Of a DNA stretch of 20,000 bases, positions 1,449 to 16,959 are shown in pieces (the first letter of the stretch is position 1; every line of letters starts with the position of its first letter). The translations under genes and the position numbers were made by a program. The notes under the pieces were generated by a model. The model was not told the origin of the DNA. It saw only the letters and a list, made by a program, of their open reading frames with translations, and made no database searches. Origin of the DNA: an uncultured virus (IMG/VR IMGVR_UViG_3300042328_001905) (Duplodnaviria > Heunggongvirae > Uroviricota > Caudoviricetes); IMG/VR virus record IMGVR_UViG_3300042328_001905; one strand, written 5' to 3'.

Positions 1449-1527
1449 AAATAGATCGCGGTATCCCCATACCCATCTACTCTAAACATTTTTCACACAA
1501 TCAGGAGACTGTAATGTCCAGCACAGA

Positions 1528-1535
1528 TATTTATA
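1528..1535 (-). promoter_or_regulatory. Antisense T4-type late promoter inside HNH codons 5-8
   Basis: The plus strand reads TATTTATA, which is TATAAATA on the minus strand, pointing at the exonuclease. Confidence 0.55.
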
Positions 1536-1915
1536 TCGAAACCCTCAAACAAATTTCAATACATAATAAATATTTTTTGTGGTATATTAATATAATCAAT
1601 AATGCCATTGCGAGAAAAGAAAAAATAGTTTTTAATTACAAAGAAAAACATCATATATTACCTAAATCATTTAAACTGGGAGGAGAAACTGATAAATCGA
1701 ATATTGTTATCTTAACAGCAAGAGAACATTATATATGCCATTTATTATTAATTAAATTTTCTAAATCTTCGTATAAAACAAAAATGTATAGTGCATTATG
1801 GTGCATGGTTAATGGATCAAATATAAAAAGAAATCCACAAAGAAATTTTAAAATAAATTCTTATGTATATACCGATTTAAAATTAAATTTATCAAAAATT
1901 CGATCAGATAACATT

Positions 1916-1992
1916 AAAGGAGATAAAAACCCAAATAAATCGAAAGAAAGAAGGAAAATTTTATCGACTCTAATGAAAGGAGATAAAAACCC
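1916..1992 (+). repeat. 17-bp exact direct repeat AAAGGAGATAAAAACCC at a 60-bp period (KGDKNP)
   Basis: Copies at 1916-1932 and 1976-1992. Confidence 0.85.
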
Positions 1993-2340
1993 CATGAAAG
2001 GAAAACATCACACTGAATGCAGTAAACGAAAAATATCTATTGCAACATCTGGAGAAAATAATCCATTTTTTGGAAAAAATCATACACAAGAATCTTTAGA
2101 AAAAATGAGAAACGCAAAAAAACCTCCGCAAACCCAAGAACACAAAAATAAATGTAGATCAACTAGGTTAAAAACATTTTATTTTTTATCTCCATTTAAC
2201 GAAATCGTAGAAATAAAAGATTTAAAATTATATTGCAAAGAAAATAATTTACAATATAATTCTATGCTAAAAGTTAACAGAGGAGAACAAAATAATTATA
2301 AAGGGTGGATTAAAGCATCTCACCCGTAATATTAAAACTA

Positions 2341-3398: not shown

Positions 3399-3437
3399 AA
3401 ATGTATTTTTAAATTGTAATAGAATTATTTATCAATT

Positions 3438-3752
3438 TTATAAATTCGCAACATACTCTTTATAAGCTGTTGTTCGTTTATCAATATTCCCATTCGGTAA
3501 TCTAGGTAGATCTTCTGGATAATCGCTTGTATCTGGTTTAGAAGTTGCTGCAATATAGTGAGAAACTGTTGGCTGTACTTGCGGTTCAAATTTTTGTTTA
3601 AAACTTTCAAATGATTCAGCTAAAACTAAAAACGATTCTTTACTTAGATGAACAATTGTTTCATTATTATAGGAAGCAACAGCATATAAGATATTGTTTT
3701 CATTAATTAAAACTTCTGCTCCGTTGTGATTTTTCGATTTTACTGTTATCAT
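3438..3752 (-). CDS. Hypothetical protein with FlbD-like N-terminal pattern
   Basis: GAGG SD and its own promoter. Pattern MI.....NG....IN..NI........T.V.L......L.ES.E. Confidence 0.6.
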   Translation of the reverse strand: MITVKSKNHNGAEVLINENNILYAVASYNNETIVHLSKESFLVLAESFESFKQKFEPQVQPTVSHYIAATSKPDTSDYPEDLPRLPNGNIDKRTTAYKEYVANL

Positions 3753-3770
3753 AATACCTCGTAATATTTT

Positions 3771-3799
3771 ATTTTACTATATAGAATATAAATAGTCAA
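3771..3799 (-). promoter_or_regulatory. sigma70 promoter driving the left arm
   Basis: TTGACT (3799-3794), 17 bp, TAAAAT (3776-3771). Confidence 0.7.
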
Positions 3800-3842
3800 G
3801 TACAATTTAGTGCTTGACTAAAAATTGTTTTTAGTATATAGT
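3787..3842 (+). promoter_or_regulatory. Late promoter plus sigma70 promoter facing the non-coding structured region
   Basis: TATAAATA at 3787-3794; TTGACT (3814-3819), 17 bp, TATAGT (3837-3842). Confidence 0.7.
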
Positions 3843-3849
3843 AAAGAAA

Positions 3850-4150
3850 ATGTGTCTGTATAAAGGTTGATACGCCGACTGATATCGTATTGATAACCTA
3901 TTCACCATAAAAGTGTGTAGAATAGCTCTGTCTAAGAAAAAAAGAGGTAAAGACACCACCTCGTTACTTCTAGGAAACTAGATGAAATTATCAATCACTC
4001 CAAACAAGAGATGATCCAATTAGGCGCAGGATCTTTAAAATCGCTACAGGTGTGGAAAGCAGCAGAACCAATCTTGGGTTGATAATGATAAAATACCTGT
4101 CTTATTCTAAAAAAATGAATTTGGGCTCCGGATAGCCTTATTCAACCTTA
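3850..4150 (+). ncRNA. Candidate structured non-coding RNA, family unknown
   Basis: No track ORF, upstream promoters, multiple local stems and an 8-bp end-to-end pairing (3863-3870 with 4142-4149). Confidence 0.45.
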
Positions 4151-4171
4151 AAAAAGATAAATATAAAAATG

Positions 4172-4241
4172 CGCTTCCGAAGGAAGCGATGCGAGCGAAG
4201 CGAAGCATTAAATTAGTTCCCTTCGGGAACCCGCTTCGCGG
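4172..4241. repeat. Cluster of GC-rich hairpins with GAA triloops on both strands
   Basis: CGCTTCC-GAA-GGAAGCG, overlapping GCGAAGC x2, GTTCCC-TTC-GGGAAC and CCGC-TTC-GCGG. Confidence 0.85.
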
Positions 4242-4248
4242 AAATCTA

Positions 4249-4277
4249 TTGACGTAAATTGAATTTCATAATACAAT
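4249..4277 (+). promoter_or_regulatory. sigma70 promoter
   Basis: TTGACG (4249-4254), 17 bp, TACAAT (4272-4277). Confidence 0.7.
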
Positions 4278-4302
4278 AAATAAAATTAAAAGGATGTTAA
4301 TT

Positions 4303-4461
4303 ATGGATAGACAAAAAATTATTGTTGCCTTAGAAACTTTAAGGGATTATAATAGATGGAGAAGAGGGCAGCTAAAAGTGATGCCCAACGCAACATTAAT
4401 AGGAGAATCAATTGAATTAGTGATTGATTTAATATCAACAGAAATCTTAAATAAAAAATAA
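4303..4461 (+). CDS. Small phage hypothetical protein (52 aa)
   Basis: Not in the track. AAGGA SD; translates MDRQKIIVALETLRDYNRWRRGQLKVMPNATLIGESIELVIDLISTEILNKK; abuts the next ATG. Confidence 0.7.
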   Translation: MDRQKIIVALETLRDYNRWRRGQLKVMPNATLIGESIELVIDLISTEILNKK

Positions 4462-4462
4462 T

Positions 4463-4885
4463 ATGATCAAGAACGTTTATGAAATTTTAAAAGAATTTGA
4501 AGGTGCTAAAACCGATCAACAACGAAAACAAATTCTTGAACAAAATAATATCTATTACTTTAAACAAGTATTACAATATACATTTAATCCAAATTATCAA
4601 TTCTACATTAAAGAATTTCCAACAGAATATATCAAACCCGATACTTTTCCTGGAATTCGATTAGCTGGTCTTGAGTCAGAACTTCGTAGAGTTTATCTTT
4701 TCTTAAAAGGTGATCCAACAGCGGATACATTAACAGAACAAAAACGTAATGTTCTTCTATTACAACTTTTAGAATCATTTGAACCTGAAGAAGCAGTTGT
4801 TTTCGTCAACATGATGAAAAAAGACCTTCAAATCCCAGGATTAACAGAATCTTTAGTCAAAGAAGTTTTTCCAGAATTATTTTAA
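4463..4885 (+). CDS. Conserved T4-like phage hypothetical protein
   Basis: N-terminal VYEIL, central 'L..E.RR.Y.F' and 'LQLLES..PEEA......KKDL' pattern typical of T4-like genomes. Confidence 0.7.
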   Translation: MIKNVYEILKEFEGAKTDQQRKQILEQNNIYYFKQVLQYTFNPNYQFYIKEFPTEYIKPDTFPGIRLAGLESELRRVYLFLKGDPTADTLTEQKRNVLLLQLLESFEPEEAVVFVNMMKKDLQIPGLTESLVKEVFPELF

Positions 4886-4901
4886 CACTTTTAAATTTTA
4901 T

Positions 4902-7900: not shown

Positions 7901-8184
7901 ATATAAAATTAACTGAAAATGATATAATTAATTTATTATTCAGATTTGAATATTTACAAGAATCAGTATTTGATCAAATAAATTCTTCAATCTTAAATTT
8001 AACAGAATTTAAATGTAAATTTAAACTTAAATTTTATTCTAAACCATTTATATCATATGGTGTATTATCATTTAATAAATGTTTAAATAATAGATCTATT
8101 ATTTTAGAATTTTCTGATACCGAATTAACATATTTAAAAATTATGGATATACAAACAAATAAAATTTTATTGGAGATAAAATGA
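7897..8184 (+). CDS. Hypothetical protein
   Basis: ATGA-coupled on both sides. Confidence 0.55.
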   Translation: MNIKLTENDIINLLFRFEYLQESVFDQINSSILNLTEFKCKFKLKFYSKPFISYGVLSFNKCLNNRSIILEFSDTELTYLKIMDIQTNKILLEIK

Positions 8185-8798
8185 AATCTTTTAAATTATT
8201 TCATGAAATGTCTATAAATGTTGGTGATGTTAAAATGGATTTAGCCACAAAACATGATCAACAAATTCATTTTAAAAAAAGTCGAAATTATCCTATTATG
8301 GATAATTTAAATAATAATGTTAAAAAACATGTTTTTAAAAATAAAAATATAACAAAATATTATACTAATGATCATGATTCAGGAAAAACTTTATATAAAA
8401 GCGAATTTCATGAACATAATCCCACAAAATTTATTCCATTCAAACATCAAGAACAGACATCTGTTGAAAGAATATCTACAAAATTATTACCGAAAAATTA
8501 TGCATTGCATGAAACATTAAATCATCTACATAATTCTAATTTACCTTTAATTTCTTCAACTTACCAAACCCCATCAGGTCATAATATGTGGAAGAAATTA
8601 TCTCATAAAGCATTGGAAACTGGTCATCATGTTTATTATCACGATGGATCTAAGTTACATAAAACTACATCTGAGAATATAGAAAATCATCTACATTCAT
8701 ATTTTGACCCAGGAACTAATTTTGATTCTTCTGGTAATTTGATTGATCCATTAGATTTCGAACATAAACATATAATTATATCTAAACATAAACTATGA
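8181..8798 (+). CDS. His-rich protein, paralogue of 10612-11238; possible internal head protein
   Basis: GGAG SD; MKSFKLFHE N-terminus; shares PFKHQEQT, GHNMW.KL.HKAL and VYYHDGS with the paralogue. Confidence 0.7.
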   Translation: MKSFKLFHEMSINVGDVKMDLATKHDQQIHFKKSRNYPIMDNLNNNVKKHVFKNKNITKYYTNDHDSGKTLYKSEFHEHNPTKFIPFKHQEQTSVERISTKLLPKNYALHETLNHLHNSNLPLISSTYQTPSGHNMWKKLSHKALETGHHVYYHDGSKLHKTTSENIENHLHSYFDPGTNFDSSGNLIDPLDFEHKHIIISKHKL

Positions 8799-10102: not shown

Positions 10103-10287
10103 TCCCAGAATTTACAGCTCAAGAATTACAAGAATTGAAATCTAGATTTAATAGCATCGTTGTTAATGAAAGTGTAGAAAATGAAGTTATTGTTCATACA
10201 TTATCATCTGGTAGAATTGTCAAAGGTGTAGTTACAATGGAAGGTGTATTACAAGTTAAATCTGTATCTAACTTTTTGTGCGGATAA
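10099..10287 (+). CDS. Small hypothetical protein
   Basis: GGAGG SD and ATGA overlap with gp52. Confidence 0.65.
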   Translation: MIPEFTAQELQELKSRFNSIVVNESVENEVIVHTLSSGRIVKGVVTMEGVLQVKSVSNFLCG

Positions 10288-10288
10288 A

Positions 10289-10615
10289 ATGCAACAACAA
10301 TATACAGTATCTACAGGGATGGATACATATCAAGCAGCAAGTTTAATTCCTTGGTATGATATCCTAACTGATGAATTTATTGAATTTATGCAAAATTGTG
10401 TATTTGAAGATATTTCTTTAGATTTAGATGACAATTTAGGTTATTATTTATGGGATTTATTTCAGCATAGAATGTGGATAAAATCTCAAATATCTGGTTG
10501 GATATGTAATAATGGTAGAAGATTAGAATGGGATAGTAAATCTAAAAAAATGACTAATATAAAAATCTATAATATTATAGATAACCAAAAATATCTTTTA
10601 TTGGAGTTAAAATGA
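10289..10615 (+). CDS. Hypothetical protein
   Basis: Track ORF 10244-10615; the likely start MQQQY lies just after the upstream stop. Confidence 0.55.
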   Translation: MQQQYTVSTGMDTYQAASLIPWYDILTDEFIEFMQNCVFEDISLDLDDNLGYYLWDLFQHRMWIKSQISGWICNNGRRLEWDSKSKKMTNIKIYNIIDNQKYLLLELK

Positions 10616-11238
10616 AATCTTATTGGGATTTTATTGAAGAAATGGCTCGAAATATAGGAAATCACCCTTATTCGAGATTAAATAATGATAGAGAATTTCG
10701 GTTTGAGAAGTATAAAACTAATTCAAGTTATCCTATTTATCAATATGATACAGGCGATCAAAATGTTAATGTGACTAAACATATTGATAATAATGGTACT
10801 ATTTATTATTCAACCAATGATAATTCATCAAAAGAAATTATACATTATTCAAATATTGAAACGCATAAACCTACAGCTAAATTACCGTTTAAACATCAAG
10901 AACAAACAATGGTTGAACGAATAAAAGATAATAGATTACCGAAAGAATATGCTACAAATTTTATCTATAACCATTTTAAATCAAGTAATTTACCTTTAAG
11001 AAGTTCTGATACACAATATAGAACTGGGCATAATATGTGGAGAAAATTAGCTCATAAAGCTTTAGATGATGGTTATCGTGTTTATTATCACGACGGATCG
11101 CAATTACATAAATCTAATAAAATGAATGTTGATAAACATTTAGATTCTTCTTTTGGTGTAGAAACTAGAATTAGAGGTAACGCATTACCTCCAGATTATG
11201 AACAACGACATATTATTTTATCAAAAAAGGAATTATAG
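10612..11238 (+). CDS. Paralogue of 8181-8798; possible internal head protein
   Basis: GGAG SD; MKSYWDFIEE N-terminus; shared motifs with 8181-8798. Confidence 0.7.
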   Translation: MKSYWDFIEEMARNIGNHPYSRLNNDREFRFEKYKTNSSYPIYQYDTGDQNVNVTKHIDNNGTIYYSTNDNSSKEIIHYSNIETHKPTAKLPFKHQEQTMVERIKDNRLPKEYATNFIYNHFKSSNLPLRSSDTQYRTGHNMWRKLAHKALDDGYRVYYHDGSQLHKSNKMNVDKHLDSSFGVETRIRGNALPPDYEQRHIILSKKEL

Positions 11239-11239
11239 A

Positions 11240-12091
11240 ATGAATTATTTAATTATAGATTTAAATCAGGTTGTGATTAGTGGATTACAATCTCAAGTTA
11301 AATCTAACAAAATAAATGTTTTGAATAAAGATTTATGTAGACATTTAGTTCTTAATTCAATTAGAGCTATTGTCTACAAATTTAAACGAGATTATCCTAA
11401 CGTAATTATCGCAGCAGATTCTAGAAAATATTGGAGAAAAGAAGTATTTCCTTTCTACAAAGCAGGTAGAAAAAAAGCTCGCGAAAAATCAACACTAGAT
11501 TGGACTTTAATTTTTGAAGTTTTGGATGAAGTTCGTACTGATTTAATTAATATTTTTCCATATAAAGTTATTTTAGTTGATAGAGCTGAGGCTGACGATA
11601 TTATTGGTACTCTTGTTCCTAGATTATCTGCTCACGGTAATGTTTTGATTGCTAGTTCTGATGGAGACTTTAAGCAATTACACAAATATGGTAATGTTAA
11701 ACAGTATAATCCTATGTTGGGAATATATGTTACTTCGCCTAATCCAGAATTAGAATTAAAAGAAAAAATCTTAACAGGTGATAGTGGAGATGGTATCCCT
11801 TCTTGTTTGTCTAATGATAATGTTTTGGTGGAAGGTATCAGGCAAAAGCCATTAACGGCTAAGAAAAAAGCTGAATTGTTATCGCAAGATTTTAATAATC
11901 CTGATATTGAGTTTTATAGAAACATTCAACGCAATAAATTGTTAATTGATTTGACTATGACCCCACAGGATATTAAAGATAAAATTGTTGAGGAATTGGA
12001 ATCTGACCAAACTGGTTCTAAACAATTGGTAATGAAGTATTTTATTGAAAAAAGGTTAAATAGATTATTGGAGTGTATTGATGAATTTTAA
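11240..12091 (+). CDS. rnh: T4-type RNase H (5'-3' flap exonuclease)
   Basis: IIDLNQ, YWRK..FPFYKAGRK, EADDIIG, SSDGDFKQL and GDSGDGIP motifs; AAGGA SD before MNYLIID. Confidence 0.92.
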   Translation: MNYLIIDLNQVVISGLQSQVKSNKINVLNKDLCRHLVLNSIRAIVYKFKRDYPNVIIAADSRKYWRKEVFPFYKAGRKKAREKSTLDWTLIFEVLDEVRTDLINIFPYKVILVDRAEADDIIGTLVPRLSAHGNVLIASSDGDFKQLHKYGNVKQYNPMLGIYVTSPNPELELKEKILTGDSGDGIPSCLSNDNVLVEGIRQKPLTAKKKAELLSQDFNNPDIEFYRNIQRNKLLIDLTMTPQDIKDKIVEELESDQTGSKQLVMKYFIEKRLNRLLECIDEF

Positions 12092-16206: not shown

Positions 16207-16959
16207 ATGGCTGCTACATCTAATACTATTAAAGAAACTGTTACAGAAACACCATTGTTAAATAAAAGAAATTTAACATTAGGTATGTTGTTATATTTAA
16301 CATTTTATTCATTTATTCGTTGGTACGAAGGGGTTTATGGTTGGTCAGCTGGTCTCGACTCATTCGCTCCAGAATTCGAAACATACTGGATGAACATGTT
16401 GTATATTGAAATTGTTGCAGAAGTGTTATTGTTCGCGGGTATTAATGGTTATATTTGGAAAACTCGTGATCGTAAAATGATGTCAATTATTCCGCGTGAA
16501 GAGTTGCGTAGACATTTTACTCATTGGACATGGTTGGTTTGCTACGGCTGGGCTATCTACTGGGGTGCTAGTTACTTCACAGAGCAAGACGGTACATGGC
16601 ACCAAACTATTGTTCGTGATACTGACTTTACTCCAAGTCATATTATTGAATTCTATTTGAGTTACCCAATCTATATCATCACTGGTACAGCTAGTTTTAT
16701 GTATGCAAAAACAAGATTGCCTACTTATCAACAAGGTTTACATTTAATGTATCTTATTGCTGTAATTGGTCCTTTCATGATCTTACCAAATGTTGGTTTA
16801 AATGAATGGGGTCACACATTCTGGTTTATGGAAGAGTTGTTTGTTGCTCCATTACACTATGGATTTGTGTTCTTTGGTTGGGCTGCTCTAGCTGTAATGG
16901 GTGTTGTGAACACCGAAGTAATGGCAATTTCTAAATTATTGAAAAATGATTTAGCATAA
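16207..16959 (+). CDS. pmoC: Particulate methane monooxygenase subunit C (phage auxiliary metabolic gene)
   Basis: RWYEGVYGWSAGLDSFAPEFETYWMN, YFTEQDGTWHQT, DFTPSHIIEFYLSYP and GLNEWGHTFWFMEELFVAPLHYGFV; 250 aa; AAGGAG SD. Confidence 0.97.
   Translation: MAATSNTIKETVTETPLLNKRNLTLGMLLYLTFYSFIRWYEGVYGWSAGLDSFAPEFETYWMNMLYIEIVAEVLLFAGINGYIWKTRDRKMMSIIPREELRRHFTHWTWLVCYGWAIYWGASYFTEQDGTWHQTIVRDTDFTPSHIIEFYLSYPIYIITGTASFMYAKTRLPTYQQGLHLMYLIAVIGPFMILPNVGLNEWGHTFWFMEELFVAPLHYGFVFFGWAALAVMGVVNTEVMAISKLLKNDLA

Follow-up and report, generated by a model that had tools for sequence, protein, structure and literature searches.

Does the cluster of DNA hairpins between two divergent gene blocks of an uncultured freshwater phage serve to start replication, or does it have some other function? 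The window, a stretch of 20,000 nucleotides (IMG/VR record IMGVR_UViG_3300042328_001905), is a segment of a T4-like phage and encodes topoisomerase II subunits, PhoH, an exonuclease, homing endonucleases, RNase H (11198-12091), a DUF6433 protein and PmoC/AmoC (16207-16959, plus strand; PF04896, E 1e-127). The last of these fits the pmoC phages of PMC7674155, the main text of which mentions neither skew nor intergenic regions, promoters or hairpins. An ORF similar to the window's pmoC/amoC gene is also carried by contig G007 (contigs are labelled G and loci L). The genes for the exonuclease and PhoH are separated by an inserted HNH/NUMOD3 homing endonuclease gene (1514-2329, plus strand) that runs opposite to the gene flow, L002/L003 differ beside phoH, and two mutually similar proteins of ~205 amino acids (8181-8798 and 10612-11238) have no PHROG family. 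The hairpin cluster (4172-4241) sits in a 540-bp non-coding gap (3753-4293) flanked by the divergent gene blocks, and the cumulative GC skew of the window reaches its minimum at this gap.

On the left, the gap borders the last gene of the leftward block, a conserved gene encoding a 104-aa protein (3438-3752, minus strand) that matched no PHROG or Pfam family and served as the left synteny anchor; the right-hand anchor is the DUF6433 gene (4463-4885, plus strand; PF20025). Sigma70-like promoters are predicted for the leftward genes (3771-3799, minus strand; 10/12 in a consensus scan), with a -35 box that forms one arm of a palindrome (3793-3820), upstream of a putative RNA (3814-3842, plus strand; likewise 10/12) and for the rightward block (4249-4277, plus strand), the last being also present after the cluster in the L142 and L150 types. 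The RNA, a predicted structured non-coding transcript of type I with inferred ends (3852-4150, plus strand, ~300 nt), is supported by covariation and helix swaps and is a candidate primer RNA. As the sequence-only reading had observed, the cluster is preceded by an A-rich tract (4148-4170), which is a candidate unwinding element and on the minus strand constitutes the T tail of a terminator-like site. Among contigs of four DNA runs, 10 substitution sites were found over 3400-4900 and none in 3796-4385, too few to count as evidence, and the A run at 3937 has lost 1 nt.

All hairpin motifs reported for the cluster were recovered at their positions, namely CGCTTCC-GAA-GGAAGCG (4172-4188) and two copies of GCGAAGC (4195-4201 and 4200-4206) on the top strand, and GTTCCC-GAA-GGGAAC (4230-4216) and CCGC-GAA-GCGG (4241-4231) on the bottom strand, and the reported GC island has 57% GC compared to 30% in the window. 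The claim of hairpins on both strands was upheld, whereas that of two separate GCGAAGC hairpins was not: the two copies overlap, cannot fold together and are better taken as a single top-strand hairpin (4189-4208), ATGC.GA.GC-GAA-GC.GAA.GCAT, which is read in the same way across relatives. This tandem-GA module consists of a 4-bp outer stem, a GA/GAA internal loop, a 2-bp inner stem and a GAA triloop. The cluster thus contains four modules in the order ++--, two on the top strand followed by two on the bottom strand in mirror order around an AT-only spacer of 7 nt (4209-4215) that forms the symmetry axis. In addition to the tandem-GA module, these are plain C-GAA-G triloop hairpins of 7 bp (4172-4188, plus strand; counterparts with other stems occur in L158 and L142), 6 bp (4216-4230, minus strand) and 4 bp (4231-4241, minus strand). 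When the window was shuffled 300 times with its dinucleotide composition kept, in no case did three C-GNA-G hairpins fall within 70 nt, and 5000 shuffles of the island produced two such hairpins in three cases and three in none; the hairpin cluster is real and beyond chance. A register corresponding to a cUUCGg terminator was considered and rejected, as the stems are in the triloop register by sequence.

ViennaRNA with DNA parameters assigned equal energies to both strands of the plain hairpins; folding energy is therefore no test of strand preference, which rests on conservation. As GNA loops and G·A pairs are present on one strand only, the signal is strand-specific. The stability of the GNA/tandem-GA fold in DNA, which is not modelled by the folds used here, was taken from PMC13037366. 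No G·T or A·C pair prolongs any of the 20 modules, whereas the RNA helix P2 makes frequent use of G·U. Furthermore, the arms of the cluster can pair with each other, and the cluster contains hairpins of the N4-type form, a stem of at least 5 bp with a C-GNA-G loop.

Whether this arrangement is maintained was examined by aligning the 104-aa left-neighbour protein, which retrieved 21 viral loci. Seventeen of these were read; three loci belong to this phage and one is without upstream DNA. The cluster is present in 14 of the 17; among the rest, one contig stops short of the site, one locus is a spurious match and one, L157/L011, on a contig of only 7.6 kb, has neither RNA nor cluster. Counting the window, the loci represent six lineages, five of which keep the element at the syntenic site, with anchor protein identities of 38-49% among syntenic loci. 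The order is constant, comprising a sigma70-like promoter, 320-490 nt of non-coding DNA, a purine-rich tract (58-73% purine in the 45 nt preceding the cluster in seven loci), top-strand modules, an AT spacer (17-99 nt in relatives compared to 7 nt in the window) and bottom-strand modules. All top-strand modules precede the bottom-strand ones in the five syntenic clusters with both strands called, as well as in the second cluster of contig G008 (G008-B). Related ORFs of 132 and 98 amino acids immediately follow the cluster in L158 and L155, respectively, and are missing from the window.

Stem covariation in related phages, which the sequence-only reading had named as a check, was confirmed, the stem sequence varying while local pairing stays. 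Plain hairpins include TCTGC-GTA-GCAGA and TCCTGC-GTA-GCAGGA in L158, GATTCC-GAA-GGAATC in L142 and GATTTAC-GAA-GTAAATC in L150. Tandem-GA modules keep their core and vary the outer stem (ATGC/GCAT, ATCCCC/GGGGAT, AATGT/ACATT, GTTCC/GGAAC, CTTT/AAAG), with outer stems that differ yet pair in L158, L142, L150, L155 and G008-B and an inner pair that is swapped in L155. The stems of the two arms vary independently of each other and remain locally paired. Invariance of the GAA loops was found in a relaxed form, as C-GNA-G is kept in the versions GAA, GTA and GCA, with the exception of AAA in both arms of L143. The simultaneous change from GAA to AAA in both arms of L143/L144 fits arm-to-arm pairing or template switching.

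Other searches contributed less. DUF6433 as an anchor returned 15 loci, mostly with other gene orders, pattern scans yielded mostly chance matches (26 of 32 and 8 of 16 were discarded on reading), and a metagenome scan (11 loci) added only a partial RNA, L205. Against a collection of cultured phages that does not include a pmoC phage, blastn of the window region produced nothing beyond short chance matches, with one such match for L245 and none for L142 or L048.

The element is present in low copy number. Clusters, counted as groups of at least three modules, occur once per contig in seven contigs from three phage types (G001, G002 and G003 of this phage, G007, G009 and G011 of one other type, and G010) and twice in G008, all clade contigs being incomplete (G001 30 kb, G007 126 kb). 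No such group was found in G006, T4, Cr30, S-PM2 or HTVC008M. The sequence-only reading had named recurrence as a dispersed repeat as a ground for abandoning its proposal; the cluster is not dispersed in this clade, with one or two copies per contig, whereas a related element occurs three times in Cr30.

The second cassette of G008 (65581-65811 and 66206-66243; L282) contains a type I RNA, has one arm duplicated in tandem over 85 nt and is preceded by a gene that we label uvsW-like from its sequence. The arms of G008-B form a long inverted repeat, and a small ORF at this cassette resembles the ORF before the first G008 cassette. G007 additionally carries a small hairpin group (84593-84670; near 10140 in G009) in the opposite order, bottom-strand modules first, with no RNA match and upstream of a gene that is presumably gp55-like. 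A dense array of GCGAAGC hairpins in AT-rich non-coding DNA, also with bottom-strand modules first, is found in L033 (~2150-2570).

The RNA upstream of the cluster is predicted to comprise a 5' module (3863-3893), a long helix (4046-4052/4094-4100) and a closing helix (3863-3870/4142-4149). Eight aligned 5' modules have 92.9% of cells paired and 3 of 7 pairs changed on both sides, a covariation score that was reached by 0 of 500 shuffles and that is inflated by kinship, with L238 two columns out of register. The 3' helix swaps between ACAGGT/ACCTGT, AGCGG/CCGCT and AGTAAGT/ACTTACT, as read by script and with an alternative helix chosen for L158; with the alignment shifted out of register, RNAalifold found just three base pairs in the 3' module. 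The RNAs have modest MFE z-scores, between -1.3 and -4.4, and no Rfam family matched in the window region or in seven related loci. A promoter similar to that of the window precedes the RNA in L158, L155, L142, L143, L150 and G008-B.

The proposed link of promoter and structured RNA to the cluster held and was predictive once. A model built from the 5' module (R1) produced a new match in G008 (66206-66243, E 1e-6) ~400 nt from the second cluster of this contig and pointing into it, the remaining matches falling in six records that contain training sequences. R1 detected nothing below E 0.1 in eight cultured phages; among 87 loci, of which 80 had been picked by hairpin motif, no match fell below E 0.5, and 13 further loci gave none. 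Two pattern scans identified relatives of the RNA in this clade and in the jumbo-type phages L179, L196, L238/L244 and L245; where jumbo-phage loci have the type I RNA, the modules called are confined to the top strand (L179, L196, L245) or no module was called (L238). The same slot is occupied by three or more RNA types that have no end modules in common, with other types in the L142 and L150 lineages. The pairing of RNA and hairpins thus recurs but the RNA types differ, which indicates that the RNA is exchangeable. Matches to Rfam family RF01718 (Polynucleobacter-1) were obtained upstream of similar hairpins in the jumbo-type loci L020 (121 bits) and L048 (88 bits), both of which had been picked by hairpin motif alone. 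In these loci (L020 2790-2925, L048 2098-2234), Polynucleobacter-1, a motif named in one paper of the literature covered, makes up the 5' portion of a more extended non-coding stretch that is followed by tandem-GA and GNA hairpins. The window RNA scored below the gathering threshold of RF01718, and one short Polynucleobacter-1 core common to L238, L245 and L142 is absent from the window RNA as searched.

A known replicon contains the same fold. The core GA-GC-GWA-GC-GA, present at window position 4193, occurs once in the 6.6 kb of ColE1. This copy (1332), whose strand is the opposite of that of RNAI (645-749), lies ~135 nt past the origin region with a G run and A run (1175-1197), at which RNA II presumably ends. 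We take position 1332 to lie inside n'-pas. This ColE1 segment is the part common to weaker matches sampled from at least 5000 plasmid records, and the exact core is intact in three of five plasmid copies examined, the other two having a wobble pair or a 4-nt loop. According to PMC3167613, primer extension exposes n'-pas/ssiA for PriA. The F-G gap of phiX174 contains GCGAAGC and lacks the tandem-GA core.

With its constant layout, conservation, strand polarity and low copy number, the element is probably a replication signal. The best reading in our analysis, which we consider somewhat likelier to be right than wrong, is a replication origin that is opened by transcription and has signals for single-strand priming on each strand. 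Host RNA polymerase would transcribe the folded RNA from the promoter at 3814-3842, and the purine-rich 3' part of this RNA would, as in ColE1 and T4 oriF, remain annealed along the A-rich tract. The hybridised RNA could then be trimmed to a primer, for which a phage RNase H is available, and its end would prime one strand. On the displaced top strand, both C-GNA-G hairpins would fold, with the bottom-strand pair folding once the bubble has passed the AT spacer. These hairpins would resist coating by SSB and mark the loading of helicase-primase, by phage proteins or host PriA, on each strand, so that two forks could depart from the main gene-orientation switch. Every step of this scheme is modelled on ColE1, T4 oriF/oriG (PMC3016281) and mini-hairpin origins. 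PMC13037366 describes mini-hairpins in the G4/St-1 origins and RSF1010 ssiA that SSB binds poorly, and PMC3016281 places the major T4 origins near transcription-strand switches.

Strand composition gives a mixed picture. At pooled four-fold sites (G001, G007, G008, G010), genes pointing away from the element are T-rich and those pointing toward it less so, with values of +0.064 versus -0.091 on the left and +0.182 versus -0.012 on the right, which are confounded by early and late gene classes and come from incomplete contigs in which the toward-pointing genes are largely orthologous. The best origin-type change point lies within 1.5 kb of the element in two of the four contigs (G001 and G010), with the same gene-class confound; in G007 the best change point is at ~50 kb (LR 75) and the element is the second peak (LR 41), and in G008 it lies elsewhere, with a weak signal at the element. 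Further points that speak against the origin reading are L157/L011 without the element, the varied RNA types, the three Cr30 elements without a long RNA, the incomplete retention of the exact core among plasmids and its absence from phiX174, the joint loop change in L143, the jumbo-phage loci with modules called on one strand or none, and the multi-copy bacterial repeats that have the same fold and no known replication role.

These repeats are the basis of an alternative that we consider unlikely, in which the element is a cassette boundary similar to REP or PeSL repeats, its inverted hairpins being targets of a single-strand nuclease, transposase or recombination system that moves promoter-RNA cassettes, with no role in replication. 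At least 121 bacterial matches to the bipolar pattern were found; among the matches listed, 95 of 121 carry a (C/T)GTCA tag, and the tagged dimers share the GA-GC-GWA-GC-GAA fold with covarying outer stems and are arranged head-to-head as in the CGTC-tagged repeats described in PMC3733652. Such tagged dimers are widespread, among the matches listed, in bacterial and archaeal genomes (L313-L433). Cr30 (NC_025422), a cultured Caulobacter phage, contains three near-identical copies of ~170 bp (~25.0-25.1, 75.3-75.4 and 118.8-118.9 kb), each with a promoter, GA-GC-GTA-GC-GA on one strand and GA-AC-GAA-GT-GA on the other in the strand order of the window. One is located upstream of a primase gene, another near a helicase gene at a distance of 3 kb from the minimum of cumulative GC skew, and the third under a doubtful ORF among baseplate genes. 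The different RNAs in one slot, the two cassettes in G008 and the jumbo-phage copies following a SegE GIY-YIG gene also suit a mobile cassette, as does the endonuclease-like ORF upstream in L149/L152, which we assign to an endonuclease family by its motifs. However, a CGTC/TGTC (GTCA) tag is present in 0 of 6 phage clusters, PF01541 (GIY-YIG) was unmatched in four incomplete records, and this clade has only one or two copies per contig. Furthermore, stem divergence with persisting structure and position suggests an element that has long been maintained by selection and has not spread recently. Pattern searches for GIY-YIG and HUH motifs near 80 bacterial matches and 80 controls found nothing, and the SRM motif of the Ssn system matched neither the phage DNA nor the 121 listed bacterial matches, both searches having been run without a positive control.

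The Cr30 copies, which contain no long RNA and no R1 match, indicate that the RNA is not always needed, and the occurrence of the fold in ColE1, bacterial repeats and Cr30 points to a general single-strand DNA module that alone is no proof of an origin. Among 105 distinct matches to GAGCGAAGCGA, the flank-pairing test was positive in 4 of 10 non-coding, 5 of 20 ambiguous and 8 of 75 coding matches (p 0.03), a weak result that is blurred by REP-like copies.

A function at the RNA level, with the hairpins acting as an RNA 3' tail, a processing site or a two-way terminator and insulator before the next promoter, appears distinctly improbable. The hairpin at 4172-4188 together with a T run scores as a minus-strand terminator and the T-rich minus-strand tail recurs in relatives, the jumbo-phage modules are mostly on the RNA strand, and tandem G·A pairs are stable in RNA too. 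However, in the right-hand modules it is the untranscribed strand alone that has GNA loops and G·A pairs, and the RNA would read UUC or UAC loops and pyrimidine mismatches; in addition, the RNA strand has no U tract, the 20 stems contain no wobble pairs, and no long minus-strand gene nearby on the right requires a transcript stop. Very unlikely is a site of two-fold symmetry, bound by a protein or forming a cruciform, that has another task (packaging start, anchor or N4-type outward hairpin promoters), for which pairing between the arms, the long inverted repeat of G008-B, the joint alteration of both arms in L143 and the 5-bp stems with GGA or GAA loops read by the N4 virion polymerase (PMC13037366) could be cited, but the arms of the window, L158 and L142 are mutually different and each self-complementary, ordinary sigma70-like promoters already flank the cluster, and no single-subunit RNA polymerase was found among the 24 window proteins scanned.

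The sequence-only reading had proposed an RNA-primed origin of undescribed architecture. Its link of the cluster to a promoter and structured RNA stands, whereas the closest working analogue found for the putative transcription-opened origin is ColE1 and not the T4 oriF/oriG or N4 promoters that it had invoked. ColE1 likewise has a promoter, a long folded RNA and then a hairpin signal on the RNA-sense strand, as well as an AT-rich start region; in contrast, the phage modules occupy both strands of a 70-nt stretch directly at the end of the RNA, and the phage has its own replication genes. The phage element has no plasmid sequence match and no RNAI match in Rfam. With T4 oriF/oriG, as described in PMC3016281, it shares a T4-like phage background, a promoter with an AT-rich tract, a location near the strand switch and an encoded RNase H, but the AT-rich tract of the window is 300 nt from the promoter, not adjacent. 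T4 origins, which share no sequence motif (PMC3016281), require a MotA middle promoter and ~100 bp, whereas the window promoter is sigma70-like with a -35 box. T4 contains no module group, no core and no R1 RNA match. In the absence of RNA II homology and of a MotA-type promoter, the element would work like the RNA-primed origins of ColE1 and T4 and be a member of neither group. Complementary-strand origins of the RSF1010/G4 type work with a dedicated primase and are not known to involve a long primer RNA. The CCGAAGG and GCGNAGC mini-hairpins of RSF1010 ssiA/ssiB and of G4/St-1/alpha3 (PMC13037366) resemble the phage modules, for RSF1010 by motif, and CCGAAGG occurs once per strand in the window.

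With the CGTC-tagged REP dimers, compared by tag and layout as given in PMC3733652, the element shares the tandem-GA and GWA-triloop fold and head-to-head pairs around a spacer; it differs in having no tag, one or two copies instead of tens to thousands, and a fixed site after promoter and RNA. PeSLs similarly consist of a stem-loop adjoining a sigma70 promoter (here 4249-4277), with content swapped among relatives (PMC2839356 and PMC4122927). PeSLs have a terminator role and recur throughout hypervariable regions, whereas the phage element is near single-copy and strand-polar and has GNA loops; the three copies of Cr30 are the most PeSL-like. The element is neither a CGTC REP, having no tag and a low copy number, nor a typical PeSL. 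We take the origin of lactococcal phage c2 to be another possible analogue, on which the literature search found no paper. Within the literature covered, which excludes most subscription journals and with them the original pas studies, no published description of the element or of an origin in environmental T4-like phages was found. Novel points are the interpretation of the cluster as four modules in this clade, the RNA link that proved predictive, the matches to ColE1 and to the CGTC repeats, and the availability of a cultured phage for tests of the hairpins.

The origins of T4 itself share no sequence motif (PMC3016281); a recognisable strand-polar signature would allow origins to be called from sequence. 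The origin reading would furthermore give a job to large phage RNAs without known function. The ColE1 match predicts single-strand priming activity, and the hairpin part could be tested in a laboratory host, as a related element occurs in the cultured Caulobacter phage Cr30. A more far-reaching proposal, which we advance tentatively as a possibility, is that swappable plasmid-style replicon cassettes start replication in T4-like methanotroph phages, combining one of several folded primer RNA types with two opposed ColE1-type primosome assembly hairpins that would load helicases on both strands. If this were true, the tandem-GA/GNA hairpin would be one recognition fold common to the ColE1 pas, phage origins, Cr30 and the CGTC repeats.
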